From a virus (lineage: Duplodnaviria > Heunggongvirae > Uroviricota > Caudoviricetes), in the IMG/VR virus record IMGVR_UViG_3300028800_000057: a DNA stretch of 64,000 nt, one strand, 5' to 3'. The position numbers were made by a program, and so were the translations under genes. Shown piece after piece: positions 1,819 to 48,946 of the stretch; the first letter of the stretch is position 1; each line of letters starts with the position of its first letter. The notes under the pieces were generated by a model, which was given only the letters and a program-made list of their open reading frames with translations, searched no databases and was not told the origin of the DNA.

Positions 1819-2349
1819 TCAAATTACTGGTGGGCGCTCGTACCGACTCTTACGCACTACTGGCTTTGGTTCTGGTTTGCGTAGAGGTTCGTCTTCCTTT
1901 GGGCCCTGCCCTAGGATAAGAGAGAGTGGGTCTGGGATTTGCTCTCGGAGGCGGGCAACAGCATCTTGATCTATGCGCACCTGACCGAGTTGAATTTGTT
2001 GCTGGGGGGTTAGCCCTGCTAAGAAGTCTGGATTTAGCCTGACGGCAGGTGTTGCTTCCTCGTAGTCATAGGGCCCAGCGAAGTCATTAACGTCATACTG
2101 AGGTCTAGGTATTGGTGGAGCGATCCGTCTTCGCTCTCCGTGGGCAAACCTCAGTACTGAACGGTCGATCGCAACCCGGAGTCTCTCCAACAGGTGCAAC
2201 TCAAATGAGTTCACGGCAGACCCGTCAGGATCTTCATGAAGTAGAGCTGGATTATTGAAGTCCTCGTAACTTAAAGGTGACCAATGTTGGGTATGAATCG
2301 TATGATTCTGATCATCCACAACATCGATGCTGATAGCTAAACGTGGCAT
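1819..2349 (-). CDS. Hypothetical protein with C-terminal RYERPPVI tag
   Basis: ORF ending ...RKSRYERPPVI*; its start ATG overlaps the stop of the upstream gene (ATCTGATG). Confidence 0.5.
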   Translation of the reverse strand: MPRLAISIDVVDDQNHTIHTQHWSPLSYEDFNNPALLHEDPDGSAVNSFELHLLERLRVAIDRSVLRFAHGERRRIAPPIPRPQYDVNDFAGPYDYEEATPAVRLNPDFLAGLTPQQQIQLGQVRIDQDAVARLREQIPDPLSLILGQGPKEDEPLRKPEPKPVVRKSRYERPPVI

Positions 2350-2696
2350 CAGATGACCGGTTCTCTTTCATATCGATTGGGGATCTCGACTTCATACACC
2401 TCGAAAGACTCCCCTTCTCCGAGAATAACAGCACCACAGGGGTTACCTGACAGTCTTTTGGAGATCTCAACAAGGTCTTCAATCTCTCGTGTGCTCATGA
2501 CTGGGTTACGAAACACGAACAAGTTTAGCTTCTTATCCTGACCTTCAATGGGGATCTCGAAGGTCTCAGGTTCTATCCCGTTACCCTTGATGACTCTGAC
2601 TTCGAGGCGGCGCGAACTCATATCACTTGACCTTCGAGTACTCTGGTATATCTCGTCTTCGGAACTGGTGGTAGCTTGAGAACGGAGATACCCCAA
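2349..2696 (-). CDS. Hypothetical protein with C-terminal RYEREPVI tag
   Basis: ORF ending ...PNRYEREPVI*; stop overlaps the ATG of the next gene. Confidence 0.5.
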   Translation of the reverse strand: MGYLRSQATTSSEDEIYQSTRRSSDMSSRRLEVRVIKGNGIEPETFEIPIEGQDKKLNLFVFRNPVMSTREIEDLVEISKRLSGNPCGAVILGEGESFEVYEVEIPNRYEREPVI

Positions 2697-3253
2697 TTAC
2701 GAAGGGCAATACCATACCCACAGCAAGATACCCCGCAAACAATTCTACCAAGTAGCGTAAATACCAAGACAGTGTCCTCATCGACGCCCTCAGGTAGTTC
2801 CATCTGAGGGTACTCAATCTTCTGAGCATGAGCTGAGTCCAGGTGTCTGGAAACTCTATACTGAAGGTCATCTCGTTGTTCATCAGAGAACGTGAGTACC
2901 TTGGTACTGCTCTCGAGAGTGGACAAGCGGTTGACCGTCTCAATGAGTGTGTCATGGGTGCTCGTGTATCCGTTTGACGAGAGGTGCTCCCTCACGTGAA
3001 GGAGTAGCATTATCTTACCCCAGTTTCGTGCATAGTCTAGGTAATCATCCGAGATACACCTGAATGGTATTCGTAGAAAGTCCCGGTTAATCTCTGGTTG
3101 ACGGCTGAAGCTCATGTCTGCTTCTAGCACTGTCCAGTAGAGATATTGAGGAACTTGATAGAACGCAGCTCCCTTATATGCATCCTGCGGGAGACTCTGC
3201 GGAGACCAAACTTCGAACTCGAAGTAGTCAGAAATATCAGTATAACTTGACAC
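2618..3253 (-). CDS. Hypothetical protein
   Basis: 211-aa ORF in an operon-like run; the C-terminus TRYTRVLEGQVI is a weak tag-like ending. Confidence 0.4.
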   Translation of the reverse strand: MSSYTDISDYFEFEVWSPQSLPQDAYKGAAFYQVPQYLYWTVLEADMSFSRQPEINRDFLRIPFRCISDDYLDYARNWGKIMLLLHVREHLSSNGYTSTHDTLIETVNRLSTLESSTKVLTFSDEQRDDLQYRVSRHLDSAHAQKIEYPQMELPEGVDEDTVLVFTLLGRIVCGVSCCGYGIALRNWGISVLKLPPVPKTRYTRVLEGQVI

Positions 3254-3884
3254 TTAGGCGGGCCGTTGGCTCGCCAGAGTCGAACAGTATGGCCAAATAG
3301 TCAAGAGCTTCTTTGGGGCTCGGGAAGACACAGCCGAGAATAGCCGAATGAATCATGAGATTATCGACCATGTTGAAATCTTCGATCATTAGACCGTCCG
3401 GTGAAACCCGGTTCTTGTACAGGCTTAGGCTCGAAGTGTATGCGACGATCTCCAATCCAAGGGCGCGACCGAATCCAATCTCGAACGCAGTACCCGCATC
3501 GAGTGACGGTCCTCGGAACGGACTGATATTGGCCAATATAGCATGACAGCTTTGGATTAGCTTGATATTGGCTTCGTAGATGAAGTACCCATTCTCCTCG
3601 GTGTTGATGGGATTCGCTAGTTTAAGATCAGAATCCAATGGAAACACGCCTTCGAAGCCAAAGTGGCGACAAGTATCTTTCAACCTAGCCGAACGATCGG
3701 CCACATCAGGGAAGAAAACATCAGGACCCGCAAGGTACACCCGTCGGTAAGGGCTATTCACCATGTCACTACTACTCCAAAAACAGATTCTAGATGGGTT
3801 GCTTGTACGATTGAAAGAGCTTGCCGGTTGGGTAGACCCGGATAAGAGCGAAATAACGCAGAATGTTATTATTCTGCTCCTCAC
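3237..3884 (-). CDS. Nucleoside 2-deoxyribosyltransferase-like protein
   Basis: YLAGPDVFFPD near the N-terminus and DAGTAFEIGFGRALG later match the N-deoxyribosyltransferase-fold signatures YLAGP..F and D.GT.FE.G. Confidence 0.55.
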   Translation of the reverse strand: MRSRIITFCVISLLSGSTQPASSFNRTSNPSRICFWSSSDMVNSPYRRVYLAGPDVFFPDVADRSARLKDTCRHFGFEGVFPLDSDLKLANPINTEENGYFIYEANIKLIQSCHAILANISPFRGPSLDAGTAFEIGFGRALGLEIVAYTSSLSLYKNRVSPDGLMIEDFNMVDNLMIHSAILGCVFPSPKEALDYLAILFDSGEPTARLSVKLY

Positions 3885-4081
3885 TCTCCAAGTACTGTTT
3901 AATTCTATCAGCTGAAAGCCCTGATACTTCTGCTACTTTTGCGATGTCTTGATCAGTGACCTCTACCCAATTGATCTCAACAAACGTAGTCTCACCTTTG
4001 ATTGAGGACATGTTTGACTACTACACCGAAAGGTAGGATTGTTAAGGTTCTAGCTACGCGGTTTAATACCGATGTGCGAGG

Positions 4082-4714
4082 ATGTTTCTACTTATCCTCA
4101 TCATCTTAGGTGACCCGCTTTACCTAAAAGTGGAGGAGTTGGACCTACTTGTGTCCGCGCTACATACTAATCAGAATAATCAAGAACTATTCGAAATCAA
4201 CACGAATATGGTAGCAAGTATCGCTGGGTACTATGCCAAAAAGTGTGTACCTTTTCTACAATACCAAGAACTCTATCAGTGGGGTTTGATAGGCTTATGG
4301 GATGCTTGTCGCAAGTGGAGGGGCACGCGCGACGAGTTCAAGTACTACGCTCGACGGAGGATCAAAGGCCACATCATTGATGAGATCCGAAACTCAACCC
4401 CCCTCAGGCGCAAGAAGAAGACTATGAGTGGCGTGATGCCCAAGTTTGACACTTTGGAGCCTAATATCGTTGACTCTGGTGATAGTCCAGTGGATGAGCT
4501 TGTGCACGCGCGGGTTGAACTAAGGAAGGTGATAGAGGCCCTCAGCTTACTAACTAAGAAAGAGGCTCTTATCATCTCAATGTATTGCTTTGAGGACTAT
4601 AAACTCAGAGAAATAGCTGATTACCTGGGTGTTACTGAGGCGTACATATGCCAGGTCAAGGATAAGGCTTTGGACCAATTAGCTCGTGCTTCGAGCGCTG
4701 GCTTGGACCCCTAG
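4082..4714 (+). CDS. Sigma-70 family RNA polymerase sigma factor (regions 2 and 4 only; FliA/ECF-sized)
   Basis: Region 2-like LYQWGLIGLWDACRKW...EFKYYARRRIKGHIIDEIR and a region 4 HTH LREIADYLGVTEAYICQVKDKALDQL. Confidence 0.7.
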   Translation: MFLLILIILGDPLYLKVEELDLLVSALHTNQNNQELFEINTNMVASIAGYYAKKCVPFLQYQELYQWGLIGLWDACRKWRGTRDEFKYYARRRIKGHIIDEIRNSTPLRRKKKTMSGVMPKFDTLEPNIVDSGDSPVDELVHARVELRKVIEALSLLTKKEALIISMYCFEDYKLREIADYLGVTEAYICQVKDKALDQLARASSAGLDP

Positions 4715-4722
4715 TATTCCTT

Positions 4723-5169
4723 TTGGACGAGGTGTACTGTGTAGCCATGGATCTCGTCGTAACCGTACCCAAGAACGTGTGGGCCTATTGGATCAAAGAA
4801 GGCGACCCGGCTGGGTCCTCCGAGAGCGGGGAGGAGTGGGCTTATTGGATCGGGGGTGCCAAGCCAAAGATCGAAGCTGGCGAGCGCCTGTATATCGTCT
4901 CTTGGGGGAAGCTCCGCGGGTACGCACCGGTGACTCGAGTTATTCAGAAAGGGGCAAGCGGTTGGGGTATCTGCCGGCGTGGGGGCGCGATAGCCTGTAC
5001 TATCCCAGAAGACGTTCCAGGCTTCAGGGGCTATCGGAAGCGCTGGTGGGACAAGAAGGATGAGACCCCGTATCCAACCTGGCGCACGGATGGAATCCCC
5101 AAAAGGCAGGTTGAACTGCTATTCAAAGCTGACAAAGAGGAAGAAGCTAGAGTTAGGTCGCGTTTCTGA
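4723..5169 (+). CDS. Hypothetical protein
   Basis: 148-aa ORF directly after the sigma factor gene; no motif recognised. Confidence 0.45.
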   Translation: MDEVYCVAMDLVVTVPKNVWAYWIKEGDPAGSSESGEEWAYWIGGAKPKIEAGERLYIVSWGKLRGYAPVTRVIQKGASGWGICRRGGAIACTIPEDVPGFRGYRKRWWDKKDETPYPTWRTDGIPKRQVELLFKADKEEEARVRSRF

Positions 5170-5175
5170 TTCTCT

Positions 5176-5739
5176 CTAGATCACCCACTTGAGCGGGTCG
5201 GCTATTCGTTCATATCGTGATACTCGAACTGGTTTGGCCAAACGTATAGTTTTTGTCTTGCTGAATCTGATACTTGATCCACCGATGGTGGTAGGTTCTA
5301 CGGTACTAGCCTCTGGATTAGTCGCAACCCACATCTCACCTTCAGCATCCCAAGCTATTGGGGTTACAGTAGAAGGGTGCGGGTCTGGTCGAAGTTCTCC
5401 GCTCCCTGACATGGACATAAGCCTCCCAGGAGACATCCCGTAGTTCAGTGCAAAGTTCATAACCCGGGCACTCTGCCGGCGCATTCTCCACTCGTACTGC
5501 TGGTGATCATAGAGAACTAGGCCAACGAACCAAGTTATGGTCACTGGCAACGCGATGTAGCTATACGGAGCCCACCGGTTGACCTGGATCACGGTGACTA
5601 CGTATAGAGACAGTATGAAGAAACTCCCCCATATCCGTAGCTTCTCATTGAATTCCCGGTTCGTGTTCATCTTGAGGAGCCATCGGCCACCCAGGATAGC
5701 TACGAAGCAGGTGACCCCAAAACCCAGGAAACTCAACAT
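5176..5739 (-). CDS. Predicted membrane protein with tag-like C-terminus
   Basis: Several hydrophobic segments; ends RVSRYERIADPLKWVI*, a variant of the recurrent C-terminal tag. Confidence 0.45.
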   Translation of the reverse strand: MLSFLGFGVTCFVAILGGRWLLKMNTNREFNEKLRIWGSFFILSLYVVTVIQVNRWAPYSYIALPVTITWFVGLVLYDHQQYEWRMRRQSARVMNFALNYGMSPGRLMSMSGSGELRPDPHPSTVTPIAWDAEGEMWVATNPEASTVEPTTIGGSSIRFSKTKTIRLAKPVRVSRYERIADPLKWVI

Positions 5740-5814
5740 GTCCGTCGCGCACCTTGCCGGCTTGCTATCGGCCTGTCAATCTAAAACCGTAGTGAGAACC
5801 CTACCCGTTTCTTG

Positions 5815-5842
5815 TTGAGTTATAGCCCCCTCACACGTAATA
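5815..5842 (+). promoter_or_regulatory. Conserved phage promoter (TTGAGT-N16-GTAATA); predicted TSS at the A of ATG 5849 (leaderless)
   Basis: Matches the 13-member promoter family; the -10 ends at 5842, and 7 nt further is position 5849, the A of the ATG. Confidence 0.55.
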
Positions 5843-5848
5843 GAGAGT

Positions 5849-6238
5849 ATGGCTGACAGAATCATTGTTGTAGAAAGCGAAAGAGGCGGTCCAGGGTATC
5901 GAATCCAGTGGGAGATCAATACTGACGGGGATACCGACCTGGGTGCTTACTGTGGGCAATCAAGAAAGAAGCCTTCAGATGAGATCCCGAGTGACCATGA
6001 AGCGCGAGAATTCTGGGCTTACGAACGGGCCGGGTTTCAAGTTATAGAAGAGGGCCCAAAGGGATATTGTGGACATGATCGTATCGGATTCTGGTGGGAA
6101 TCTAAGAGTCATGCTACAGCCGCTCTTGCTAAAGTCAGAGCGCTCGCCAAAGTAACCTTGAGTGGGGTACCTTGGCCTGATTGGGCTACGCAGGCGTTAG
6201 CCGCCGGTTGGAAGCCTCCGAAGGGTTGGAAGCCCTGA
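5849..6238 (+). CDS. Hypothetical protein
   Basis: 129-aa ORF starting exactly at the predicted leaderless TSS. Confidence 0.5.
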   Translation: MADRIIVVESERGGPGYRIQWEINTDGDTDLGAYCGQSRKKPSDEIPSDHEAREFWAYERAGFQVIEEGPKGYCGHDRIGFWWESKSHATAALAKVRALAKVTLSGVPWPDWATQALAAGWKPPKGWKP

Positions 6239-6240
6239 GC

Positions 6241-6795
6241 TTACTTCTTCGAGTCCTGAATCACCTGTTCGAACGAGGGTAGCTTCGATGGGCTCGGTGC
6301 TTGAGATATCTCGGGGAGGGCATGCACAAGACGAGATTCAGGGGCAGCCTGAGCCGCGCTGAACGCTACTCTTGGTTGCTCTGAAGCGCTTGCTGCTTCC
6401 TCGGGACCCACAACTTCCTCAATGGGGAGTGGCTCCTTCTTCTTAGGCTTGTAGAAGGTGGACACCTTGGGTGGTAGGGCTGGAGTCGTTGAAGTACTAG
6501 TAGAAGTCGAAGTATTTGTGAGGGCTGCAGTCTTAGAGGCGGCCATACCGTTTAGATATGCCCAAACTTCTTTGACATCCGAGTGGGTATCTTGGATGGC
6601 CGCTGCGTTCTCCTCTACCTTTTTTCCCAACGTCTCGTAGATCGCTTTTTGGCCTGTCTGGTCATAGGCTTTGATCAAGCCGATGACCGAGGTAATGAGA
6701 GCTACCACGATTGGGGCGAACCCTAGGACTATCTTTGCTTTAGACCAGAAAGGGGAGATGGGGGGAGATTCTGAGTCGGCCATACACCCCAGCAA
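6241..6795 (-). CDS. Predicted membrane-anchored protein with Ser/Thr-rich linker
   Basis: N-terminal TM helix (IVLGFAPIVVALITSVIGLI), then TSTSTSTSTT and a Pro/Ala-rich tail. Confidence 0.45.
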   Translation of the reverse strand: MLGCMADSESPPISPFWSKAKIVLGFAPIVVALITSVIGLIKAYDQTGQKAIYETLGKKVEENAAAIQDTHSDVKEVWAYLNGMAASKTAALTNTSTSTSTSTTPALPPKVSTFYKPKKKEPLPIEEVVGPEEAASASEQPRVAFSAAQAAPESRLVHALPEISQAPSPSKLPSFEQVIQDSKK

Positions 6796-6878
6796 TACAC
6801 CAAAGGAAAAACTGTTGAGAATTAGGAACTTGAAACGTAATAGCCTATGAGAGCCTACGGGCCTAGTGAGAGCACAAT

Positions 6879-7109
6879 ATGAATGACCGACCTGATACCT
6901 TTGAAGGAGAGCCTGCTTATGTCCAAGATTTCTGGGACAGAGCCAAAAATGGGGGCGCGGAAGTTGACGAAACCGTATACAAGTTCACTATCACCAAGGA
7001 AGATTCAGAGAAGTACCCTGAGTTGAAACCGGGTATGCGCTTGCTACTCGCCAAGTCACCCGATGGGTTCGTATTTCATGACCTGCTACCCCCCAGATTG
7101 ACTAACTGA
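6879..7109 (+). CDS. Hypothetical small protein
   Basis: 76-aa ORF; placed only by its position in an otherwise ORF-free gap. Confidence 0.35.
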   Translation: MNDRPDTFEGEPAYVQDFWDRAKNGGAEVDETVYKFTITKEDSEKYPELKPGMRLLLAKSPDGFVFHDLLPPRLTN

Positions 7110-15353: not shown

Positions 15354-15617
15354 TCAGATCACCGGCTTGCGTTCGTATCTAGAGGTTCTCGACGTTGGTG
15401 GTGGGTCATCGGATAGTCGATTCCGATTCAATAGTCCCATCGGTTGAATGTGGCCTTCAATGAAGGCGCTCATGCGCTTCCATTGCTCTTTATCATAGTC
15501 GGCCGTTCCGACGGCTTTAGTCCACAGGGTGTGGAGAAGATGGTGAATCTCTTGGTCAGTTTCCATGTATGTAAGTGTACTCTTACTGACTACAGGTGTC
15601 AAGTGGTCAGCTACCAC
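15354..15617 (-). CDS. Hypothetical protein with C-terminal RYERKPVI tag
   Basis: Ends ...TSRTSRYERKPVI*. Confidence 0.45.
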   Translation of the reverse strand: MVADHLTPVVSKSTLTYMETDQEIHHLLHTLWTKAVGTADYDKEQWKRMSAFIEGHIQPMGLLNRNRLSDDPPPTSRTSRYERKPVI

Positions 15618-17985: not shown

Positions 17986-18396
17986 GTGGCGAAGCTAAGG
18001 CTCATAGTTCAACTCATCGAGGACGATGATACTAGACACCAGAACGAAATGGACATCCCCCTGTCGGAGTTCAAAGACCCAGATCTGGTCAACGAAGAAG
18101 ACATGATACATGCCTTCAATAGTACTTTTGGGTTCTTGATGAGGAGCGCCCAACACTTCGTTAGGTATTGGCGCTTGAGTGCTGAAAACAAGGCTTACTT
18201 CGAGAGGATAGAGCAGTACGCTCGTGACCGCGGTATGGGTGATATAGGTGCAGCGGCAATGATAGCGGGGGCTATCATCACTCCTGAGGGTACGAGCCAC
18301 CTTCAACTTCCCATTCAGGTGTTAGAGCCAAAAGAAGGGGAGGACTTTCCCCGTCCAAAGTTCCCCAGTCGGTATACACGCAAGCCGGTGATCTGA
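17986..18396 (+). CDS. Hypothetical protein with C-terminal RYTRKPVI tag
   Basis: GTG start downstream of a TTGTCA-N18-TATAAA promoter-like element (17948-17977); ends PSRYTRKPVI*, with the stop overlapping the next ATG (GTGATCTGATGG). Confidence 0.5.
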   Translation: MAKLRLIVQLIEDDDTRHQNEMDIPLSEFKDPDLVNEEDMIHAFNSTFGFLMRSAQHFVRYWRLSAENKAYFERIEQYARDRGMGDIGAAAMIAGAIITPEGTSHLQLPIQVLEPKEGEDFPRPKFPSRYTRKPVI

Positions 18397-18929
18397 TGGC
18401 AGCTGAAGACATGGTCCTATTCGGTATAGCTTGTGACAAGGTAGACCGAGGAAGCATTGACGAGGCGCGCAAGCTCCTGGCTGGTAACCCAGACTTAGCC
18501 ACCCGATTGGAGATGAAGATCCGGCCGCCAGATGATGTGGGTCGGTTCTTGGAACTCAAGCGGCTAGCCCAGCTGGCATCCTTTCACCGGGGGCGAGCCT
18601 GGATTTACCAGTTGGAGGCCACCCAAGTCTGTCACTACTCTCGAACGCTGCTCAAGGACCCCCTGGGCTGGCTTACAGACTTCCTGGACAGGCAGGGACT
18701 CACCTACCAACAACGAGTGACCTTGCACTCACAGTTCTTCGACCTCTACCATGAAGAGCTGAAGTCGGTGCGCGAGATTGTCTACAATAACTGGGCTGGG
18801 TACAAGAAAGAGAGACCAAAGGGTGTTCGGTTCAAGGACTACACCCAATTCAAGTCGATGCCAGCCCCCCAAGAGTTCCCACAACCACCGAAGGTCCTGA
18901 GTCGATACGAGAGGCCTTGGGTGATCTAA
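18396..18929 (+). CDS. Hypothetical protein with C-terminal RYERPWVI tag
   Basis: Ends LSRYERPWVI*; stop overlaps the next ATG (ATCTAATGG). Confidence 0.5.
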   Translation: MAAEDMVLFGIACDKVDRGSIDEARKLLAGNPDLATRLEMKIRPPDDVGRFLELKRLAQLASFHRGRAWIYQLEATQVCHYSRTLLKDPLGWLTDFLDRQGLTYQQRVTLHSQFFDLYHEELKSVREIVYNNWAGYKKERPKGVRFKDYTQFKSMPAPQEFPQPPKVLSRYERPWVI

Positions 18930-19531
18930 TGGTAGGGTTCTTCCCATCACCAGAGGTTGCTCGGGCTGCTGGAGTCTCCAAAGACTTTCTTGATTGGATG
19001 GTGGCCACTGGGGTCAGAGATTTCGACACAGCTTGGACTACCTGTGTAGATGTGAATGCAATGACCAAGCTGCTATGGTCATTGAATCCTCAGTCCAATA
19101 ACTTGCATTGGATAGCGTTCCGAGCCGCGTCACGGACTGCTGAAGCGGAGCAAATGGACCTTGATGAGCAGCTGATCGACCACCTCGTGAACAAGCTGCA
19201 TGCTCTTGAATTAGGCACTGACTACGACGGTATGGTCGCCATTGAGCGGGCTATAGCTCTTCATCGAATCATGAGAGATGACGGACCAAGTTCCAAGGAC
19301 CAAGCTCAGCTAGCGATAGGGTGGGCTTGTTGCAAGGCATCTCTCAACTGTATAAAAGCACTCGACTGTGCCCTACGCTCAGAACGCTTCCGGCTGGGAA
19401 TGAACGATGGTCCGCACGTAGTCACCGAACCTTCTTACCAGGTGAAAGACATCCACGAGTTGTTCCCACTACCACTCACAGATTCCAGGGTTAAGTACTT
19501 GTCACGGTACGAACGACCGTGGGTTATATGA
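18929..19531 (+). CDS. Hypothetical protein with C-terminal RYERPWVI tag
   Basis: Ends LSRYERPWVI*. The ATG at 18929 is preferred over the track's TTG at 18917. Confidence 0.5.
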   Translation: MVGFFPSPEVARAAGVSKDFLDWMVATGVRDFDTAWTTCVDVNAMTKLLWSLNPQSNNLHWIAFRAASRTAEAEQMDLDEQLIDHLVNKLHALELGTDYDGMVAIERAIALHRIMRDDGPSSKDQAQLAIGWACCKASLNCIKALDCALRSERFRLGMNDGPHVVTEPSYQVKDIHELFPLPLTDSRVKYLSRYERPWVI

Positions 19532-19964
19532 CCGGCGGGCGCTCGTACCGTGAGACCCGCTTTGACTGATTTATTTTCTCTAACTCCATTTTCTCAGCGA
19601 GGCTCATGATACGAACCTTGGTCTCTTCAATCTGTTGAGTTAGTTCTTGCTGCGAAGCTATAAACTCAGCATGGTGACGAGCTACCCTTCTATCACTGTA
19701 CTTGGAAATTCGTGATATGTAGGCTAGTGCAGCAGGTCCACAACATGCTACTACGAAGACTTGGAGCTTAGGTAGCTTAGTAGGCATCAGAAAGCCTACT
19801 AAAACTATGACATAGAGCAAGATCGGTAGTTCGAAACAGGCCTTCTTCCAGGTCGGGTACTGACCCTCACCACTCTCAATTAGCGATGACAGAAGAAGAA
19901 CGATGCAAACAGCAGCCAGCACTATCGCGCATAACACTGAGAAGTTTTGGAATCTCTGCAGCAT
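19524..19964 (-). CDS. Membrane protein with C-terminal RYERPPVI tag
   Basis: Two TM helices; ends RVSRYERPPVI*. Its 3' end is convergent with 18929-19531 and overlaps it by 8 nt. Confidence 0.5.
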   Translation of the reverse strand: MLQRFQNFSVLCAIVLAAVCIVLLLSSLIESGEGQYPTWKKACFELPILLYVIVLVGFLMPTKLPKLQVFVVACCGPAALAYISRISKYSDRRVARHHAEFIASQQELTQQIEETKVRIMSLAEKMELEKINQSKRVSRYERPPVI

Positions 19965-23358: not shown

Positions 23359-23781
23359 CTAAATTACCCACTTGCGTTCGTATCGAGTAAGAATCACTCG
23401 AGTATCTGGTTCGTTCGCCGGTTCAAGGTTGATGAAGTCGTAGTCCGCGCGGTATGCCGTAGCGCAGAGTTTTGGAAGCCTACATTGATTGGGCTTCTTC
23501 CTTGATAGATCGTTCCTTCTCTCATAGCAATCTGGGCAAAGAGTAGGAGACCCAGGCTTTCGTCGACAATCGTCACACTCAAAGTAGTTGGAGGCTAAGA
23601 AGACCGAGTGGAGATAGTCGATGCGAGTACAGTGCGTACCCGTACCAGGTTCCTTCTCTCTGGCCCAAACGAATCGTCCCTTGACCTTAGTCACTTGGTA
23701 CAAGGCCTCTGGGCTATCCTTGTCTCGGAGCCAGAGGCCAACTTTAACCCAACCTGGCATCGGTGGTATTTGAAGTGGCAT
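23359..23781 (-). CDS. Cys-rich protein with C-terminal RYERKWVI tag
   Basis: CTRIDYLH...FECDDCRRKPGSPTLCPDCYERR; ends ILTRYERKWVI*. Confidence 0.5.
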   Translation of the reverse strand: MPLQIPPMPGWVKVGLWLRDKDSPEALYQVTKVKGRFVWAREKEPGTGTHCTRIDYLHSVFLASNYFECDDCRRKPGSPTLCPDCYERRNDLSRKKPNQCRLPKLCATAYRADYDFINLEPANEPDTRVILTRYERKWVI

Positions 23782-25177: not shown

Positions 25178-25879
25178 ATGTCCATACTAGACGACCTATC
25201 AGAGGGGTTTGCAGAGAGCGTCAAGCTCCTCATCAAGTTGGCGGACGGCATCAAGGACGATAGCGACCGAGATACTCCAGAGATGCAAGAAGCTGAAGAC
25301 AGAGCCGAGAGGCTCTGGTACGAGCTCAATGACACGGACACAATCATTCTCGATGCCATGTCGGCGGACCTCTGGTACTTAGCTGACGAAGGTCCACTCA
25401 AGGGCAAGGAGCCTACCCTCGAGCTTCGAGGAGGTTATGAACGAGCCAAGCAAGATGACAACTTGCTTGGTATCGCTTGGTCGCTCCACGAGTGTGCTAA
25501 GCTTGCCTCCGGGGTTGAGGGGGCTCGGGTTCGTCTTCACCTGTGGAAGTCTCTCAAGCAAGAGGAAATGACCCGACGCTTTGAAGTCCTGTGGACTCGT
25601 GAGAAGTTCAAGGAGTTTCGGAGCCAATGGCACAAGGACACCCAGTTCTTGTCTTTCATCAACTCTGACCATCCGGCCTATCAGGAGATCATCAAGTTGG
25701 GCATGCCAGTGGTTCCAATCCTTCTAGAGGAGATGCGTGACGACCCTGATTGGTGGGGGATCGCTCTAGCGGCTATCACCGGGGAGAACCCCTGCAAGTT
25801 CCCTGAGATGTCTGGAAACCTTGCAATGATCTCCAAAGCATGGGTAGAGTGGGGGGTAGCGCGAGGACTAATTAAGTGA
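25178..25879 (+). CDS. Hypothetical protein
   Basis: 233-aa ORF. Confidence 0.45.
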   Translation: MSILDDLSEGFAESVKLLIKLADGIKDDSDRDTPEMQEAEDRAERLWYELNDTDTIILDAMSADLWYLADEGPLKGKEPTLELRGGYERAKQDDNLLGIAWSLHECAKLASGVEGARVRLHLWKSLKQEEMTRRFEVLWTREKFKEFRSQWHKDTQFLSFINSDHPAYQEIIKLGMPVVPILLEEMRDDPDWWGIALAAITGENPCKFPEMSGNLAMISKAWVEWGVARGLIK

Positions 25880-26352
25880 GAACTATTCAGGTCAATTGGT
25901 TAGAATCTCCACATTACATGGTACTATACCAGCGAGATAGACCTGGGATGGTTCTTGTCGCAGATGATAAGATGTGGGGTGTGAAGGCTCCACCTGAAGA
26001 TGCTGGTGGATCTGGATTTAGTCTACCTCTCTGCAGTGCAACAGACCCTATGATTGACTCTCAGTTCAAGAATGCACTTCAGACCCGATTGCAGATGCTT
26101 GTGGTCTACGCCTGGCAACAAGGGTTACTCGATCAAGTAACCTTCTTTGGGGTTATTCACAACTACCGCCAGAACATCATGATCGGGATGGGGTACTCGA
26201 CGGTAAACGTCCTTCCTCGCTTCGACCACACTCCTAGCAGCTTATTCAAGTATTTACCGTCTGAATTCGAGGTAGACATAGATAGTATACTAGGGACACA
26301 AGCACGTGCACGGTCTCAGAGGTCTCGTTACGATCGCCCTTGGGTAGTCTGA
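25876..26352 (+). CDS. Hypothetical protein with C-terminal RYDRPWVV tag variant
   Basis: Ends RSRYDRPWVV*. Confidence 0.5.
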   Translation: MRTIQVNWLESPHYMVLYQRDRPGMVLVADDKMWGVKAPPEDAGGSGFSLPLCSATDPMIDSQFKNALQTRLQMLVVYAWQQGLLDQVTFFGVIHNYRQNIMIGMGYSTVNVLPRFDHTPSSLFKYLPSEFEVDIDSILGTQARARSQRSRYDRPWVV

Positions 26353-38470: not shown

Positions 38471-38498
38471 TATTACGCACGAGGAACTACAATCTCAA
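38471..38498 (-). promoter_or_regulatory. Conserved phage promoter (TTGAGA-N16-GTAATA); leaderless for ATG 38464
   Basis: The reverse complement reads TTGAGAttgtagttcctcgtgcGTAATAccatgcATG; -10 end plus 7 nt is 38464. Confidence 0.55.
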
Positions 38499-38904
38499 CA
38501 TCTTTTGAAGAAGACCAGTCATCCCACTCGTCCTCGGTCAGTATAAAAGACCCAATCGGCAACGGATCTACAATACCATCTGAGCGGTAAGTCTTGATAC
38601 TCTCCCCGTCGAGTCGAGTGATTGTCCCGTCCTGCTGACGAATGAAAATTAGGCACTCCGCGTGAGATGGGTCGCTCTTCCATCCAGAATTCTTCTCTGC
38701 CCATACGACTAAGTCGTTGTTATTCATGGGCTTACCACACGTTTTGCAGCAGTAGGGGTGGATCTGGACCCGCGCGATCCTCGGGTACTCTACCTGGTCT
38801 TCCATCCTTTGACCGGGCTTCTTCTTCCTTTGGTAGTGGCCATAGAGGAGAGTTATGGCCAAGCCCACCAAAAATGAGATGATGATAGCAACTGTACTAC
38901 ACAT
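38473..38904 (-). CDS. Membrane-anchored Cys-containing protein
   Basis: N-terminal TM helix; CCKTCGKP. Confidence 0.4.
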   Translation of the reverse strand: MCSTVAIIISFLVGLAITLLYGHYQRKKKPGQRMEDQVEYPRIARVQIHPYCCKTCGKPMNNNDLVVWAEKNSGWKSDPSHAECLIFIRQQDGTITRLDGESIKTYRSDGIVDPLPIGSFILTEDEWDDWSSSKDVEIVVPRA

Positions 38905-43427: not shown

Positions 43428-43430
43428 GAG

Positions 43431-43694: not shown

Positions 43695-44034
43695 TGGGTA
43701 ACCCTGAATCTTCTAGTTTAACCTCTGTCCCGGGGTACTTCTTCTCTAAGATGCGCCCGCACTCACAAGTGAAGACCAGAACTACTTGCCCTTGAAGCAG
43801 GGATATAGCACCCAGGGCGGCAATCCCTTCGGCCTCAAATCTACGACCTGAGTAGGGTTTACTTGCTATTCTAGCTCTCAAAGTCCATTTGTGTCGATGA
43901 AACATGATTCCTCTCAAATCGGTTGACAGCACGCCTCCGGTGACAGCCTTAGGGTACGACAGCTCACCGTGGTCTTGCACAACATTGGAGTCCTGACCCA
44001 ACTTGGACCAAAGCTTCCGGGCTCTATCCAGCAC
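43687..44034 (-). CDS. Hypothetical protein
   Basis: 115-aa ORF. Confidence 0.35.
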   Translation of the reverse strand: MLDRARKLWSKLGQDSNVVQDHGELSYPKAVTGGVLSTDLRGIMFHRHKWTLRARIASKPYSGRRFEAEGIAALGAISLLQGQVVLVFTCECGRILEKKYPGTEVKLEDSGLPNG

Positions 44035-44256
44035 TCAGCATACTCAGGGTAGCAGTTCGTCTCGTGGTGACAGTAGGCGCGCGAGGTGAACGACAAGTCA
44101 GACAGGTAAAACGAGTTGTCGACTGCGTACGGTTCTATCAGGATCTCAGACGGCAAGGCATCCAAACCCAAGGAAAAGATTACGGCTGGGATGTACCCGC
44201 ACAGAAACCACGGTAGCATGGCTGTCAAAGCTACAGTAGCTGGGAACCAAAGTCAA

Positions 44257-44781
44257 TCAAGCTGATTGTTTCAATTCGAATCCACCACACTCCGGACAAT
44301 GGCACGGATCTTCCATCTTTGAGTACTTGGACCACTCCTCCGGGTACGGGATGAGGAACGCCCAGTAGATGACCTCGATGAGCCCGGTCCGGCGAGGGTG
44401 AGGGTCCCAGAGAAGCTCCCCGTAGCGCGCAACCACAACGTGATTCTCTTTTGAGACAGCGGTCCGGACTGTCTTGCCAGACATGAAGTGAATCCCCGGT
44501 GCCTTTACTTCGAGAGCACTCAAGAAGTGAGGTTGTAGGTTGACATAGGCCAGCCCATGGTGCTTGCGCAAGTAGGTTCCCAGTTCGTTCTGGTAGTAGG
44601 GCTCCTTGCGTGTCCACGTCCCGCTCTCTTCAGGGTTTGGCTTGTCCCAAAGATCACACACAGTCTGATCCGGTAGTTGCTCAGGAGGGATCTCTAGTAC
44701 GCAAGCTACAGCAGTTTGCCAGCAATTGCCGTGTATGACATTGGTTTGAGTGTACTCAATCATCACCCTTGTGTACACCAA
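44257..44781 (-). CDS. Hypothetical protein (weakly papain-like: GNCWQTAVACVL; C-terminal CPECGG)
   Basis: 174-aa ORF; the motif resemblance is weak. Confidence 0.4.
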   Translation of the reverse strand: MVYTRVMIEYTQTNVIHGNCWQTAVACVLEIPPEQLPDQTVCDLWDKPNPEESGTWTRKEPYYQNELGTYLRKHHGLAYVNLQPHFLSALEVKAPGIHFMSGKTVRTAVSKENHVVVARYGELLWDPHPRRTGLIEVIYWAFLIPYPEEWSKYSKMEDPCHCPECGGFELKQSA

Positions 44782-44832
44782 GGGGTAACCATTACCTCAT
44801 AATGGCTACCCACATAGTAGTAAACGATGACT

Positions 44833-45264
44833 TCAGTGCTTGGCTGCAATCAACGAAGTCGATGAGATAGGTGAGGAGGATGAACGAACGCTCAATATTG
44901 ACTCTAGGCTGCTGATTGCTGAGCTCATCGAATCGACCGGGATGACCTCCAACTGAGTTTCAACCCCAACTGCGAGTTGTTCCGTTGCTGCTTCGATTTG
45001 CTCAACCATATCCGTGATCCCAGCTAGGTTTTCACCGATCTCGGTAACTGCCACTAGCAGTTCCTCGGAGAACTCCTCGAACTGTGGAGTGAACCGCCGA
45101 GCACCCTTGAGCGGAGTCAGGGTGGACTTCAGGACACCGTCCTGAGTAATCTCGAAGTGAGTCGCCATCTCGGCGAAGCGGGCCTGGGCTTTCGTTGCTT
45201 TTTGAATCAATTCAGGGAGTATGCTGAGAATCTGTGCTTGACGTTGGCTTGTTGTCTGTTTCAT
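44833..45264 (-). CDS. Hypothetical protein
   Basis: 143-aa ORF downstream of a family promoter with a 49-nt leader and an SD. Confidence 0.45.
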   Translation of the reverse strand: MKQTTSQRQAQILSILPELIQKATKAQARFAEMATHFEITQDGVLKSTLTPLKGARRFTPQFEEFSEELLVAVTEIGENLAGITDMVEQIEAATEQLAVGVETQLEVIPVDSMSSAISSLESILSVRSSSSPISSTSLIAAKH

Positions 45265-45319
45265 CCTGGTCCCCTATTGGGTGCGTTTAGATCTCGAGAG
45301 TATCGAGGTCGTTAGTCCA

Positions 45320-45347
45320 TATTACGCGCGAGGATGGCAGATCTCAA
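45320..45347 (-). promoter_or_regulatory. Conserved phage promoter (TTGAGA-N16-GTAATA)
   Basis: The reverse complement reads GTTGAGATCTGCCATCCTCGCGCGTAATA; the first 20 nt are nearly identical to the promoter at 63251-63270. Confidence 0.5.
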
Positions 45348-45365
45348 CAAGTCAGATCAAAAGTA

Positions 45366-45710
45366 TCACACCTTGTGGGCAAACCCTACTCTAACCCCAG
45401 GGTAGTGCTGACTTCCGTCGTCTGGCCCCCCAGGCTTACAGGTTATTTGGACCTCGGCCCAAATCTCTTCAAGTTCGATTTTAAGTGCCTCGGCCTCAAG
45501 CTCATTTGAATTGAGTAGAGAGAGTGGTATCCGAACCCCCATTACTTCAGCTATTGAGTAGGTGAACCGCTGGCGTAGGTACTGGCGGACTCGGTTTGGC
45601 GTTGGGCCAAAGGAGGTTAGCGTCACGTGGTACTCATCCGGGTAGTCGATGAAGAATGGCATCTGCATGGCTACTAAGGGTATGGGGTCCGGAGGATCTT
45701 CAAGGGGCAT
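45366..45710 (-). CDS. Hypothetical protein
   Basis: 114-aa ORF. Confidence 0.4.
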   Translation of the reverse strand: MPLEDPPDPIPLVAMQMPFFIDYPDEYHVTLTSFGPTPNRVRQYLRQRFTYSIAEVMGVRIPLSLLNSNELEAEALKIELEEIWAEVQITCKPGGPDDGSQHYPGVRVGFAHKV

Positions 45711-46176
45711 AGTACCTGTATCTCCATACCTCGCCCGTGAATACTTGGTTGGCTAGGTCGTACTCCATGCCAACTTCTATGGTCTTCTCAGGGTTAGTGT
45801 CCCAAGAAGATACCTTGAAGGACACACCCTGGTGTGCCCCAGAGGTTGCGTCGACCCACCTGACGCTCATGTGATCTCCGGTATCAAGGTTGAATAGTCC
45901 AACTCCAATCCGTTTGGCCACAAGGGAAGTTTGACGTCTAGTTCTAAGATCTTCCTCCCACTCAACGATGTTCTCCCAAGTCACATCAGAGAATTGTGGA
46001 ATCTCAGAGGTGGGTAGGCTACGAGATTCGAACTTACGTGGGATAGTCTGAAGAGCTGCGTTGACGGCCTCCTTACACTCCGGACAATAGTCAGTGCAGG
46101 ACTCTCGAGAGCGGTTGTAGGAGTTCCACAGATAGATGATCTGGCAGTTCTTGCATCGGATGTAGCGTTCGATCAT
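45700..46176 (-). CDS. Zinc-ribbon protein
   Basis: CKNCQ...CTDYCPECKE; its start ATG overlaps the tagged upstream gene's stop (ATATGA). Confidence 0.4.
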   Translation of the reverse strand: MIERYIRCKNCQIIYLWNSYNRSRESCTDYCPECKEAVNAALQTIPRKFESRSLPTSEIPQFSDVTWENIVEWEEDLRTRRQTSLVAKRIGVGLFNLDTGDHMSVRWVDATSGAHQGVSFKVSSWDTNPEKTIEVGMEYDLANQVFTGEVWRYRYYAP

Positions 46177-46424
46177 ATCACTGGGTCCCTCTCGTACCGA
46201 GTCTTCACCCTGGACCGATTCTGAATATCCAAGTTTACAGCTATAATGAAGTCCCTCTTAGTATTGAACTTAGCTCGAATAGAGGAGCTATCGTTCCAAA
46301 TGGCTGTGAACAATTCAGAGAACAAGCTGAGGGTGATCTCCTCAGCAGGCTTACCTGAGATACCATTGTCCTCTAGTACCCCCTCAACTGCCTCGATGAA
46401 CTTGAGGAAGCGAGATTTGTTCAT
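46173..46424 (-). CDS. Small protein with C-terminal RYERDPVI tag (paralog of 46421-46729)
   Basis: Ends KTRYERDPVI*; the shared core with its neighbour is I...W......I..KF.T...F. Confidence 0.5.
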   Translation of the reverse strand: MNKSRFLKFIEAVEGVLEDNGISGKPAEEITLSLFSELFTAIWNDSSSIRAKFNTKRDFIIAVNLDIQNRSRVKTRYERDPVI

Positions 46425-46729
46425 ATCACGGGGTCCCGTTCGTAGCGGCTCTTGATCCTAGTCACTGCAGGTTTTGAGTCAGGATCTACGAGTCGTGTCT
46501 TGACCACGTGTACCCTGAAGCTATCGAATGTTTTGAACTTAGACTTGATAGCATCATTGTTGTCCCAGGCTGCCCTAATAACTCTATCAAGCACTGAGAT
46601 GACGGTGGTCTCGGCAACCTCACTACTGATGTTGTCCTCCTTCATAGCATTCATCACCGAAGTGACAAGCTTGAGGTAGGCTGAGTTAGCCATGGCCCGT
46701 GTAGAACTCCCAAGATTCTTGCTCTTCAC
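46421..46729 (-). CDS. Small protein with C-terminal RYERDPVI tag (paralog of 46173-46424)
   Basis: Ends KSRYERDPVI*. Confidence 0.5.
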   Translation of the reverse strand: MKSKNLGSSTRAMANSAYLKLVTSVMNAMKEDNISSEVAETTVISVLDRVIRAAWDNNDAIKSKFKTFDSFRVHVVKTRLVDPDSKPAVTRIKSRYERDPVI

Positions 46730-46949
46730 TCCAACACCAACCGAGTTCCTTGAGTTGGTTTATCTCTGCGGTTGTGAAGGACAAGTCGGTATCTGGGCTC
46801 TCTAATGGTCCAACATAGACTCCCTTATCCAACCCAATCAAGGTGACTTTAGGTTTGTGCTTTTGGATGATCCGAATGCCTTGGAGGATCTTGAGGGCTA
46901 TCTCCTCAGCTGGGGATCCAGGCTCGTTATCTTCAGGAAGAGTGTTCAT
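46686..46949 (-). CDS. Hypothetical protein
   Basis: 87-aa ORF. Confidence 0.35.
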   Translation of the reverse strand: MNTLPEDNEPGSPAEEIALKILQGIRIIQKHKPKVTLIGLDKGVYVGPLESPDTDLSFTTAEINQLKELGWCWSEEQESWEFYTGHG

Positions 46950-47398
46950 GCGATGGCTAACTCCATTGGTAGTTGGTTGGCGTCACAGAGAGCTTGGACT
47001 CGCTCCGGGACCCCGCAGGTGATGTTCTTCATTGGATAGGTCGTGTACCCGAGTCCGATGTGGACACAGTGCACAGTGTTCGTTGGGTTAGGGTCAATAT
47101 GACTCATCAGCTCACCCCGTATGAATCCGTAGAACTGGGCTCGTCCTTGATTCGGTAGAACCCCTTGCCAGGTATCATAGAGGCTCTTCATGAGCTTCGT
47201 GATCCCATCCCTGACGTGACTCGGGTGTTGAGTGTTCACCGCCAGCTCGAAGAACTTGAAGCTGATTGTTGTTTCTCTGCGAAGTAAGAGGATATCGTGC
47301 CCATTCTCGCCTAGTAGTAAGAACGGAACCCCTGCATCCTTCTCGAGAACTGGGAACTCTCCTGTAAGTTGAACCCAAAATGCTGGAATACTAATCAT
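46946..47398 (-). CDS. Hypothetical protein
   Basis: 150-aa ORF. Confidence 0.35.
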   Translation of the reverse strand: MISIPAFWVQLTGEFPVLEKDAGVPFLLLGENGHDILLLRRETTISFKFFELAVNTQHPSHVRDGITKLMKSLYDTWQGVLPNQGRAQFYGFIRGELMSHIDPNPTNTVHCVHIGLGYTTYPMKNITCGVPERVQALCDANQLPMELAIA

Positions 47399-47635
47399 CT
47401 AGTCAACTACACCAGTTCCCCTAACAGGTTCTAGCCAAGTTGTCCCGCAGTCTTTACAACAATACCAGCGACGCCCAGGATATTCTGGGTCTAACACCCA
47501 ACGATTATCGTGGAACGCTCGGCATCGCAATCGATACATACTATCCTGCCACTTACGAAAGCGGATCACTGTATTGATGGTTGGGCCAAACCTAGCCGCT
47601 AACAATAACTCAAACCCTAACAGGTTCAGTCTCAT
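47399..47635 (-). CDS. Small Cys-containing protein
   Basis: 78 aa, CCKDCGTTW. Confidence 0.35.
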   Translation of the reverse strand: MRLNLLGFELLLAARFGPTINTVIRFRKWQDSMYRLRCRAFHDNRWVLDPEYPGRRWYCCKDCGTTWLEPVRGTGVVD

Positions 47636-48108
47636 CGATTGGGGGCCTCGCTACCGGGGTGTTGATCACAGTTGCCGTCATTGTTGTGGTCGCGCTCGCA
47701 ACAAGGGATGTTCTCTGGTTTGACTTCGACTTCCTTTGCAGCCTCCTCACAAGTAATAAACGGCCTTTCACACAAGAGTCCAATCAACTCCGTTAGAACG
47801 ATAGCATCAGGTATCGCAATCCCAAGTTTCTCCTGGACGTACCTCCAGTGAAGTAGTGCGGAGCTACAGATGACAACCATCGTTCGAATTGGAACTTGGT
47901 TCAAGTACGAAACTAGGACCCCATCACCCTCGCTACCTAACCCCAACCGATCCTTAACCTCTGGGGCGAACTCCTTCAGGTCGGTGAAGGATATGAGGTA
48001 CAACGACCCGTTTCCAGGTACATATTCGACAATTGTAGTCTCCCCATAACTACTCTCTCTTTTGACTCCGTCTCGAATCGACCCTTGCTTACGTAGTTCC
48101 AGGTTCAT
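47632..48108 (-). CDS. Hypothetical protein
   Basis: 158-aa ORF. Confidence 0.35.
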   Translation of the reverse strand: MNLELRKQGSIRDGVKRESSYGETTIVEYVPGNGSLYLISFTDLKEFAPEVKDRLGLGSEGDGVLVSYLNQVPIRTMVVICSSALLHWRYVQEKLGIAIPDAIVLTELIGLLCERPFITCEEAAKEVEVKPENIPCCERDHNNDGNCDQHPGSEAPNR

Positions 48109-48149
48109 TGGCGCAGGGTACCTTTATTATTGTTGTTATTCAATGGGTT

Positions 48150-48596
48150 CTATATGACCCACCCTCGTTCATACCTTGATATTCGTCGAGGTATTTCCTG
48201 AGGGCCCCAGTCAAAGGGCTTCTCTGGCTCACGAATCATGGACTCGAATTGAGGGACGACTTGCTTGTTTGTGTAGAACAACCCATATCGAACGAGAGAC
48301 CCAGGCCTCTCGTACCAGGTCACGAGGTTCATGACCCCATCAACGATACCGAAACCAAACCAGTTTTTGGAGATGAGCCTGGCACCTCCGGCCTTAGCCA
48401 GTTCCTCGATGGTATTGATGGTGGCCTGCTGTAGGTGGACAGTAACAAGATGATCGCCACAATCATCTGCTGAATAGGGTGCTAGTAGATGATCTATGCC
48501 GCAAAACACGTACCCTTTACATCCGCTGGTAAGCCTAAAGTAGACTTGGTCCTCCTCTTGGTGAAGATCATGCCATAGAGTAGTAATTGCCATCAA
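48150..48596 (-). CDS. Hypothetical protein with C-terminal RYERGWVI tag
   Basis: Ends ISRYERGWVI*. Confidence 0.5.
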   Translation of the reverse strand: MMAITTLWHDLHQEEDQVYFRLTSGCKGYVFCGIDHLLAPYSADDCGDHLVTVHLQQATINTIEELAKAGGARLISKNWFGFGIVDGVMNLVTWYERPGSLVRYGLFYTNKQVVPQFESMIREPEKPFDWGPQEIPRRISRYERGWVI

Positions 48597-48946
48597 ATCA
48601 CCGGTTTACGTTCGTATCTAGTGGGTATTGATGCCTTGTCAACTGCCTTGGCAAATCGTTCTCTGAACTCTGAGTTTGATCCTAGTGCATGCTCCAAGTC
48701 CATTGCATACTTCCAGTGCTCGTCACAGAGAGGGATCGGTTGACCCTCCTTATCGGGATCTTCCAGGTGATGGGTCACCGGCTTTGAGCAGGGTTTGAAT
48801 AGGCCTGCACAGACTTCAGGTTCATCCGCCATCGCCCACCCCATCAGATTCTGATAATCCTTCATCCTCATTAACCGCTGATGGAACCCCTTGCCCAGGA
48901 TGAGAGAGTTGCAAACCATTCGGACAGAGCCTCTGAATGGTTTCAA
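48593..48946 (-). CDS. Hypothetical protein with C-terminal RYERKPVI tag
   Basis: Ends IPTRYERKPVI*; stop overlaps the next ATG (GTGATTTGATGG). Confidence 0.5.
   Translation of the reverse strand: MKPFRGSVRMVCNSLILGKGFHQRLMRMKDYQNLMGWAMADEPEVCAGLFKPCSKPVTHHLEDPDKEGQPIPLCDEHWKYAMDLEHALGSNSEFRERFAKAVDKASIPTRYERKPVI

Follow-up and report, generated by a model that had tools for sequence, protein, structure and literature searches.

The DNA analysed here, a stretch of 64,000 nucleotides from IMG/VR virus record IMGVR_UViG_3300028800_000057 (Caudoviricetes; hereafter the window), encodes a series of proteins that differ in their bodies and end in nearly the same short peptide, [S/T]RYERx[P/W]VI-COOH. 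This C-terminal peptide, referred to below as the tag, is borne by ~15% of the window's open reading frames (ORFs; 17–18 of ~116), including two genes upstream of a gene for a homolog of the eukaryotic major vault protein (MVP). The window is an accessory-gene region of a huge phage, with ~116 ORFs of at least 60 amino acids (aa) covering ~91% of its sequence. One tagged protein (15354; window proteins are named by one end coordinate of their genes, Table 1) and the MVP homolog are located on a Joint Genome Institute (JGI) contig of 443,068 bp, and the present analysis covers ~80 kb of this ~443-kb genome. A megablast search of 25 kb against INPHARED (50,697 GenBank phages) gave no match.

Tagged genes of the window

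A six-frame scan for ORFs of at least 30 aa ending in RY.R, one to eight further residues and V[IV] returned 18 window ORFs (Table 1), 16 with the strict form [S/T/N]-R-Y-[E/T/H/D]-R-x-[P/W]-V-[I/V]-stop and two with a loose form. All 16 strict tags listed in a preliminary description of the window were recovered where it had placed them, including the variants RYTRKPVI, RYHRKPVI and RYDRPWVV of the genes ending at 18396, 21249 and 26352, as were the loose forms at 5176 (RYERIADPLKWVI) and 2618 (RYTRVLEGQVI). Its size range of 83–317 aa holds at the upper end, whereas the lower end falls to ~70 aa by collection gene calls (70 aa at 15354, 90 aa at 2349). Strict matches numbered 16 in the window, compared with none in 200 shuffles of it. 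The tetrapeptide RYER occurs only at gene ends: all 14 of its six-frame instances lie exactly eight codons ahead of a stop codon in long ORFs, and none is internal. The tagged ORFs all fall within 1.8–49 kb, and one further tag was seen immediately beyond the left edge of the window; no tags are present between 49 kb and a point 7.5 kb past the right window end, a span of 22 kb. Two convergent tagged genes overlap by 8 nt at 19524–19531 (TTATATGA), where the same bases on opposite strands encode the final Ile codon and the stop of both genes.

Table 1. Tagged genes, the MVP module and the Tad2-like candidate of the window.
Coordinates	Strand	Product	C-terminal end	Remarks
1819..2349	-	tagged, 176 aa	VRKSRYERPPVI	tag-bearing orthologs in L039, L054, L029 and L041
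2349..2621	-	tagged, 90 aa (collection gene call)	EIPNRYEREPVI	
2618..3253	-	loose variant, 211 aa	PKTRYTRVLEGQVI (RYTRVLEGQVI; also TRYTRVLEGQVI)	variant kept in orthologs
5176..5739	-	membrane protein, 187 aa	split tag SRYER-IADPLK-WVI (SRYERIADPLKWVI)	kept in L039 ortholog
15354..15566	-	tagged, 70 aa (P0001)	SRTSRYERKPVI	
17986..18396	+	tagged, 136 aa	KFPSRYTRKPVI	
18396..18929	+	tagged, 177 aa	KVLSRYERPWVI	ortholog P0010 retains tag
18917..19531	+	tagged, 204 aa	KYLSRYERPWVI	final 8 nt overlap convergent tagged gene
19524..19964	-	tagged membrane protein, 146 aa	KRVSRYERPPVI	2–3 transmembrane segments, then coiled segment
20296..21249	+	tagged, 317 aa	AIPTRYHRKPVI	L069 ortholog ends TIPTRYHRKPVI
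23359..23781	-	tagged, Cys-rich, 140 aa	VILTRYERKWVI	
25876..26352	+	tagged, 158 aa	SQRSRYDRPWVV	remote superfamily member
30759..33374	-	full-length MVP homolog, 871 aa		candidate receptor/shell
33500..33688	-	conserved small acidic protein		always directly upstream of MVP gene; about 57–62 aa, 55–63 aa across lineages
33992..34447	-	tagged, 151 aa	PILSRYERPWVI	same strand as MVP gene, upstream
34448..34957	-	tagged, 169 aa	HRLNRYERPWVI	body folded in AlphaFold2 model
46173..46424	-	tagged, 83 aa	RVKTRYERDPVI	paralog of 46421 gene
46421..46729	-	tagged, 102 aa	RIKSRYERDPVI	paralog of 46173 gene
48150..48596	-	tagged, 148 aa	RRISRYERGWVI	
48593..48946	-	tagged, Cys/His-rich, up to 117 aa	SIPTRYERKPVI	
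50121..50336	-	best Tad2-like candidate of the window, 71 aa	DDWEVL, at domain boundary	without tag

The coding of the tag is unconstrained, as the preliminary description had remarked. All six Arg codons are used at both invariant Arg positions, Val and Ile are written with all four and all three of their codons, respectively, and agreement at the third codon position among identical residues is 0.40. All three types of stop codon follow the tag, and the DNA 3′ of these stops shows no similarity between genes. Since synonymous codons vary freely, selection acts on the peptide, and the tag is conserved at that level. A DNA or RNA element at gene ends that is merely translated, such as a recombination site, a terminator or a mobile cassette, would explain why the motif always abuts a stop codon; however, the synonymous codon use, together with the unconserved downstream DNA, the three stop codons and the occurrence on both strands, effectively refutes this explanation.

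Anatomy of the tag

Residue frequencies, counted over 84 distinct tagged proteins and numbered back from the C-terminus, yield the consensus [R/I]-[V/L/P]-[S/T]-R-Y-E-R-x-[P/W]-V-I-COOH. Arg occupies positions -8 and -5, Tyr position -7, Val position -2 and Ile position -1; Phe and Trp were never seen at -7, though the search pattern permitted both. The remaining positions are filled by Arg (58%) or Ile/Val at -11; Val, Pro, Leu or Lys at -10; Ser (75%), Thr or Asn at -9; Glu (76%) or else Asn, Asp, Ser, Lys, Gln, Ala or Thr at -6 (with His in two tags dropped from the counted set); any residue at -4; and Pro (67%) or Trp (31%) at -3. Two upstream flavours, R-[V/L/I]-S and I-P-T, can be distinguished, the latter being paired with the Pro class in all examples inspected. 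The membrane protein at 5176 departs from this pattern in carrying a six-residue spacer, IADPLK, between SRYER and WVI, compared with the single residue of the canonical form. Its ortholog in the related locus L039 retains the split arrangement (SRYERISDPLKWVI), and this conservation indicates that the tag is, judged by its sequence, bipartite: [S/T]RYxR forms one half, and [P/W]VI-COOH forms the other, which would require a free carboxy terminus.

The residues ahead of the tag have a character of their own. Pro is enriched 2.25-fold and Lys 2-fold over the preceding 26 positions, and among the orthologs P0004–P0008 the tag is fixed while the length and sequence of this linker vary. Over 49 homolog pairs, body and linker are 45% and 46% identical, respectively, whereas the last nine residues reach 85%, a value inflated by the selection pattern, which fixes two Arg and restricts the last two residues to Val, Ile or Leu. 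An AlphaFold2 model of the 34448 protein (mean predicted local distance difference test score (pLDDT) 74; predicted template modelling score (pTM) 0.68) has a beta-rich folded body at residues 1–148 and pLDDT values below 50 at residues 149–161 and 164–169, which make up the linker and tag. The predicted architecture is thus a folded body, a Pro/Lys-rich linker that this one structure model renders as disordered, and then the tag.

Diversity of the tagged proteins

All-against-all BLAST of the window proteins, run on bodies from which the tails had been removed, gave one clear paralogous pair (46173 and 46421; E = 3.5e-9) and one borderline match (1819 and 17986; E = 0.096). BLAST sorts the 85 proteins of all loci into 46 families, or 84 proteins into ~45 once a chance hit in locus L053 (see below) is removed; profiles built from these families added few links between them, and most families have no profile match to each other. 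Leave-one-out profiles do reveal a remote superfamily that includes 26352 (E = 1e-8), 34448 (E = 9e-5) and several relatives (down to 1e-9), and some carriers share recurring motifs (N-terminal P-I-x-W and C-terminal G-L-x-Y-S...P-x-F). Leave-one-out scores are weak for 33992 (E = 0.11–21) and 48150 (0.11–0.39), which probably belong to this superfamily by their shared motifs only, and for the untagged 46946 (0.56), a putative member on the same basis. The preliminary count of 17 unrelated proteins is therefore overstated: clearly different types exist, but 46173 and 46421 form a paralogous pair, 26352 and 34448 share a remote superfamily, and the window holds ~11–13 independent protein types.

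The types themselves are disparate. The proteins at 19524 and 5176 are multi-pass membrane proteins, and transmembrane segments occur in ~5% of tagged proteins; two from a relative (L039+7364 and L039+8200) carry basic residues after an N-terminal transmembrane anchor, an arrangement suggesting that the tagged tail would face the cytoplasm. The carriers 23359 and 48593 are Cys-rich, while 46173, 46421 and 15354 look like small helical proteins. The tagged proteins of the window have no family match in Pfam, PHROGs or NCBIfam. Three proteins in relatives consist of a Tad2-like (Thoeris anti-defence 2) domain followed by a linker and the tag. The Tad2-like candidate of the window (Table 1) was assigned on a weak local hidden Markov model (HMM) match (E = 0.015), the common DDWE ending and a faint Tad2-like signal at the corresponding place in L063.

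These observations bear on whether the tag is portable at all. It could instead be a conserved end inherited by all members of a single ancient paralog family, the bodies of which would have diverged too far to be recognised, a possibility favoured by the remote superfamily, the 46173/46421 pair and the weak links among some families. Such an origin is very improbable, however, given that the tag also sits on a Tad2-like domain, a Pfam family normally without it, and on multi- and single-pass membrane, Cys-rich and small helical proteins; that most families have no mutual profile match; and that linker length varies among orthologs while the tag stays fixed. Homology among the tagged bodies is limited to subsets. 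The tag is a genuine portable short linear motif on clearly different proteins, and the preliminary proposal of a portable recognition or sorting tag is well supported by the free codon use, by the excess of tag over body identity, by a domain that occurs with and without the tag and by the restriction of the tag to one clade.

Distribution in other genomes

Degenerate DNA patterns for the tag were scanned in IMG/VR, in a metagenome collection and in bacterial and archaeal species representatives. Among the 2.9 million contigs of IMG/VR, tags occur on a handful only (3300037067_010056, 3300038415_000126, 3300038415_000117 and 3300031712_000051), several of which bear many each; contigs 3300030328_003006 and 3300009347_000012 were rejected as carriers because their matches do not lie at an ORF end. 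The metagenome collection contained 32 matching loci, ~20 with true C-terminal tags and several with two to seven each. Only five isolated matches, none a real tag, were found in 185,579 species-representative bacterial and archaeal genomes (GTDB). A match in locus L022 (Planctomycetia) falls in a non-coding frame of a high-GC chromosome, and the Metallophos_2 protein of L053, which ends LRYERKPVI, lacks the Ser or Thr and is an isolated match ascribed to chance.

Protein-level searches likewise returned few relatives. Homologs of a tagged protein are very rare (five in 5.8 billion sequences), and a profile of the 40-aa tail retrieved three proteins from a 5.8-billion-protein index that requires several shared words. 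A tail profile built from the window only and run against representatives (E <= 1e-3), a search that is no census of tags, found two true orthologs together with the repeat artefacts P0009 and P0012. An IMG/VR search that required exact 8-mers found no relatives of the MVP homolog or of the 130-aa neighbour. The tag is specific to one phage clade; the three collections thus dispose of the concern, raised with the preliminary description, that the motif might be common at C-termini in unrelated genomes.

A full-length MVP homolog beside tagged genes

The MVP homolog of the window is collinear with eukaryotic MVP through the shoulder and cap-helix. Its model, based on 42 homologs (mean pLDDT 74), comprises N-terminal beta-repeat domains, an alpha/beta shoulder and a helix of ~180 residues, and Foldseek matches it to full-length vault structures (E ~1e-32) and to crystal structures of repeats R1–R7 (2e-14). 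Viral MVP homologs have earlier been reported in gut phages (bioRxiv 10.1101/2023.11.10.566534). The closest cellular homologs, at 43–54% identity, are bacterial chromosomal genes, including one from Candidatus Uhrbacteria, of the Candidate Phyla Radiation (CPR), that adjoins rpmE, prfA, rpsB and tsf; these bacterial relatives may point to the lineage of the host or to where the gene came from. The homologs compared include L067 10001–12622 and L068 10001–12577.

In four lineages the genes follow the same order: one or more tagged genes, an optional 333-aa gene, the small acidic protein and MVP. Tagged genes upstream of MVP on the same strand number two in the window, two in L064, three in L065/L066 and one in L069, and the MVP homologs of these relatives are 94%, 76% and 65% identical to that of the window, respectively (the last value by BLAST). 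The optional gene, of 333–348 aa, stands between the tagged genes and the MVP module at L065 3662–4663 and L064 11160–12206 and is missing at the corresponding place in the window (33408–33991). In relatives whose MVP is 76–94% identical, its tagged neighbours are 44–73% identical; where they are 44–57% identical, MVP is 76% identical over its full length, and its N-terminal 500 residues include long near-invariant stretches. Such conservation fits a partner of an invariant peptide, and would equally be expected of any structural protein. The earlier suggestion that tagged proteins are cargo of an MVP-like shell thus gains circumstantial support from gene order and MVP conservation while still falling short of proof.

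Other features of the window

Recognisable families of the window comprise two sigma-70-family factors, an RNA ligase, a nucleoside 2-deoxyribosyltransferase, NT5C and HD phosphohydrolases, an NAD kinase, GmrSD_N, a Tad2-like protein, a terminase-like fragment, a tail-fibre-like N-terminus and an MVP shoulder-domain protein. A 148-aa protein of no family (4723–5169, +) lies directly 3′ of an extracytoplasmic function (ECF)-type sigma factor gene (4082–4714) and is the most conserved of its neighbourhood, with 95% identity in L039. At the left end, ORF 170–1159 (+) was set aside as a 329-aa response regulator because its N-terminal 200 aa are an antisense artefact: positions 170–772 are read from the strand opposite the 3′ end of a gene that runs off the left end and encodes a CCA-adding tRNA nucleotidyltransferase, and the real gene, 773–1159 (+), encodes a 128-aa single-domain (REC) response regulator.

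A promoter-like motif, GTTGAG(A)-N17/18-CGTAATA, occurs 12 times (0.08 expected), with plus-strand sites at 5814, 6814, 7129, 10666, 12071, 14152, 27417, 54056, 56754 and 63251 and minus-strand sites at 38471–38499 and 45320–45348. Most inspected sites lie just ahead of gene starts; none of the 12 directly precedes a tagged gene, and the motif yields no timing information on those genes. One copy stands directly before a DDE_Tnp_1 transposase gene of insertion-sequence type (63286–64000, +) that runs off the right end. A second transposase copy was found in the left flank of one strain variant and DDE_Tnp_IS1595 in a relative (L061 6972–8204; L059 14188–15399); insertion sequences thus seem to be present in the huge phage genome.

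Interpretation of the tag

A peptide that is C-terminal, bipartite, near-invariant and tethered to many different bodies bears the hallmarks of a docking motif read by one conserved pocket. One strongly conserved receptor would bind it, with a pocket that also caps the carboxylate; this receptor is most likely phage-encoded, a preference that follows from the confinement of the tag to a phage clade and its absence from bacterial genomes. Binding would gather a large, fast-evolving accessory set in one place, including anti-defence-type proteins and a few membrane anchors, and the most likely destination would be a protein shell built by the phage, the tag then being akin, by analogy, to the cargo-loading peptides (CLPs) of encapsulins or the capsid targeting sequence (CTS) of phage T4. 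We infer the singleness of the receptor, its identity and the outcome of binding alike. The reading placed first, and held tentatively, is that the tag sorts or loads its carriers into or onto a phage-built shell, with MVP as the leading candidate receptor and the capsid as the alternative; it is ranked first because the architecture and operon logic match those of encapsulins and the biology matches that of the T4 CTS. A more specific form of this reading is doubtful: the MVP homolog would assemble a closed particle, a phage-built vault, during infection, dozens of unrelated accessory and anti-defence proteins would be loaded into or onto it by means of the tag, and the membrane carriers would anchor it.

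Several observations weigh against sorting to a shell. Membrane carriers are poor cargo for a closed shell, and docking, anchoring or a degron would fit them better. The synteny with MVP could simply reflect the collinear gene order of related genomes, the MVP gene is far from most of the tagged ones, and the bacterial (CPR) chromosomal MVP homologs have no tags in their 22-kb flanks. Capsid and prohead-protease genes are not in the window, and the tags cluster in an accessory-gene region. Paralog expansion, to judge from the sequence families, accounts for part of the spread of the tag. Finally, the tag does not resemble in sequence any targeting signal known from encapsulins, T4 or vaults.

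Alternatively, the tag might be a degron that marks the accessory cohort for timed removal by an AAA+ protease of the host (ClpXP, Lon or FtsH) or by a protease of the phage. The RYxR half would then bind a possibly phage-encoded adaptor and the [P/W]VI-COOH half the unfoldase, as ssrA does with SspB and ClpX. We regard this as somewhat unlikely. Its extreme C-terminal site, the hydrophobic end after basic residues, the bipartite build and the predicted disorder of the tail would all suit a degron, which would moreover serve soluble and cytoplasmic-tailed membrane proteins equally. The tagged genes lie among small accessory genes, the nearby response regulator at 773–1159 is of the same single-domain type as the adaptors CpdR and RssB (a similarity that is only generic), and C-terminal ClpX degrons are established (PMC12723719). 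Known degrons, however, are short and loosely conserved, whereas the tag has 9–11 constrained, near-invariant positions across lineages; none of the genes for ClpX, ClpP, Lon or FtsH turned up in the window or in the retrieved flanks, the proteins of the species-representative genomes do not carry the tag, and there is no evident reason to degrade a Tad2-like sponge.

It is also unlikely that the tag docks its carriers onto a hub other than a shell, for example RNA polymerase with the phage sigma factors, a modifying enzyme or the HExxH proteins described below, the hub either acting on the tagged proteins or being regulated by them. A near-invariant tag does imply a conserved binding pocket, two sigma factors are encoded in the window, and membrane-anchored carriers could bring such a hub to the membrane; on the other hand, no specific enzyme can be tied to the tag, a Pfam scan of the window ORFs showed no domain known to bind C-terminal peptides, such as PDZ or TPR, and we know of no precedent for ~15% of local genes sharing one enzyme dock. 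As to the preliminary option of a docking peptide for a processing enzyme, the same scan found no peptide-binding or protease family in the window, where two unclassified HExxH proteins are present. These are adjacent paralogs of 452 and 415 aa (58887–60245 and 60242–61489, both on the minus strand) with the motifs HEFGH and HELGH, a downstream E-[D/N]-F-A-E-[T/M]-F and similar N-termini (IAL[K/R]VAARY). Matching no Pfam family, they look by these motifs like zinc metallopeptidases, and the combination is one that we take to resemble the anthrax lethal factor (LF) and MtfA type. Their 80–91% identity in the relative L015 would befit a hub; both genes, however, lie in the tag-free part of the window, and the pair was rejected as tag readers because nothing connects either protein to the tag.

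The tag opens dozens of orphan phage proteins to experiment together. The tagged set defines a functional cohort for which the Tad2-like domain suggests anti-defence or host take-over roles. Were MVP the receptor, vault function, itself a long-standing question, would become directly testable in a bacterial system, and a compact loading tag would be available for engineered vaults; were loading into a phage-built vault also true, the phage would possess a viral organelle with a proteome-wide zip code, and the tag would be the first defined short vault targeting peptide.

Comparison with known systems

The closest architectural parallel is with encapsulins, whose CLPs are C-terminal peptides of ~10 aa that follow flexible linkers, with secondary cargo encoded elsewhere (PMC8229669). 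The tag likewise places ~10 conserved residues at the very end of proteins that are otherwise unrelated, and it follows a variable, flexible, Pro-rich linker, as judged from its sequence logo, the linker composition and the low pLDDT of the tail. Core cargo genes of encapsulins lie directly upstream of the shell gene and other cargo is recognised by the peptide alone (PMC8229669), an organisation reminiscent of the tagged genes around MVP. The sequences differ, being of the GSLxIGSLK/TVFSLIQ type in encapsulins and SRYERx[P/W]VI here; no HK97-fold shell or capsid family was found among the 116 window ORFs by Pfam scan, the adjacent shell-type gene being the MVP homolog; and encapsulin systems have one to four tagged families, compared with dozens here, some of them membrane proteins.

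A biological parallel is offered by the internal proteins of phage T4, diverse anti-defence proteins that have only the CTS in common (PMC3012670). Here, too, a short peptide is the sole common feature of hyperdiverse small phage proteins (~45 BLAST families), and a Tad2-like anti-defence domain bears it. The CTS, however, is N-terminal and cut by the prohead protease, whereas the tag always forms the last 8–9 residues ahead of the stop codon and would require a free end.

Degradation signals share a different set of features with the tag. The ssrA peptide and the C-terminal ClpX degrons (C-motif 1, LAA; C-motif 2, MuA-like) are portable C-terminal peptides with basic and then hydrophobic residues, the RRKKAI class of MuA being one such degron, and ssrA follows the same bipartite logic of an adaptor-binding part and a terminal hydrophobic part. 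The R-x-[P/W]-V-I-COOH end fits a ClpX degron loosely, 9–11 constrained positions being atypical and the conservation far stricter. Unlike ssrA, the tag is encoded in each ORF and not added by transfer-messenger RNA (tmRNA), of which ARAGORN found none in the window. Among class II PDZ ligands, which end hydrophobic-x-hydrophobic-COOH, W-V-I would fit and P-V-I would be atypical. A possible link to a full-length MVP shell recalls the targeting of PARP4 to vaults through its INT/MINT region, although the PARP4 INT is a folded domain of ~160 aa, compared with the 9–11 aa of the tag.

No description of the motif or of the concept was found in literature searches, and portable terminal sorting peptides as such are already known from encapsulins, microcompartments, T4 heads and proteases. 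The tag is thus a new motif of a known kind, that of portable terminal recognition peptides, at an unusual scale and in a new setting: on ~15% of the genes within one region of a huge-phage genome, near-invariant throughout a clade, and beside a gene for a full-length vault protein.

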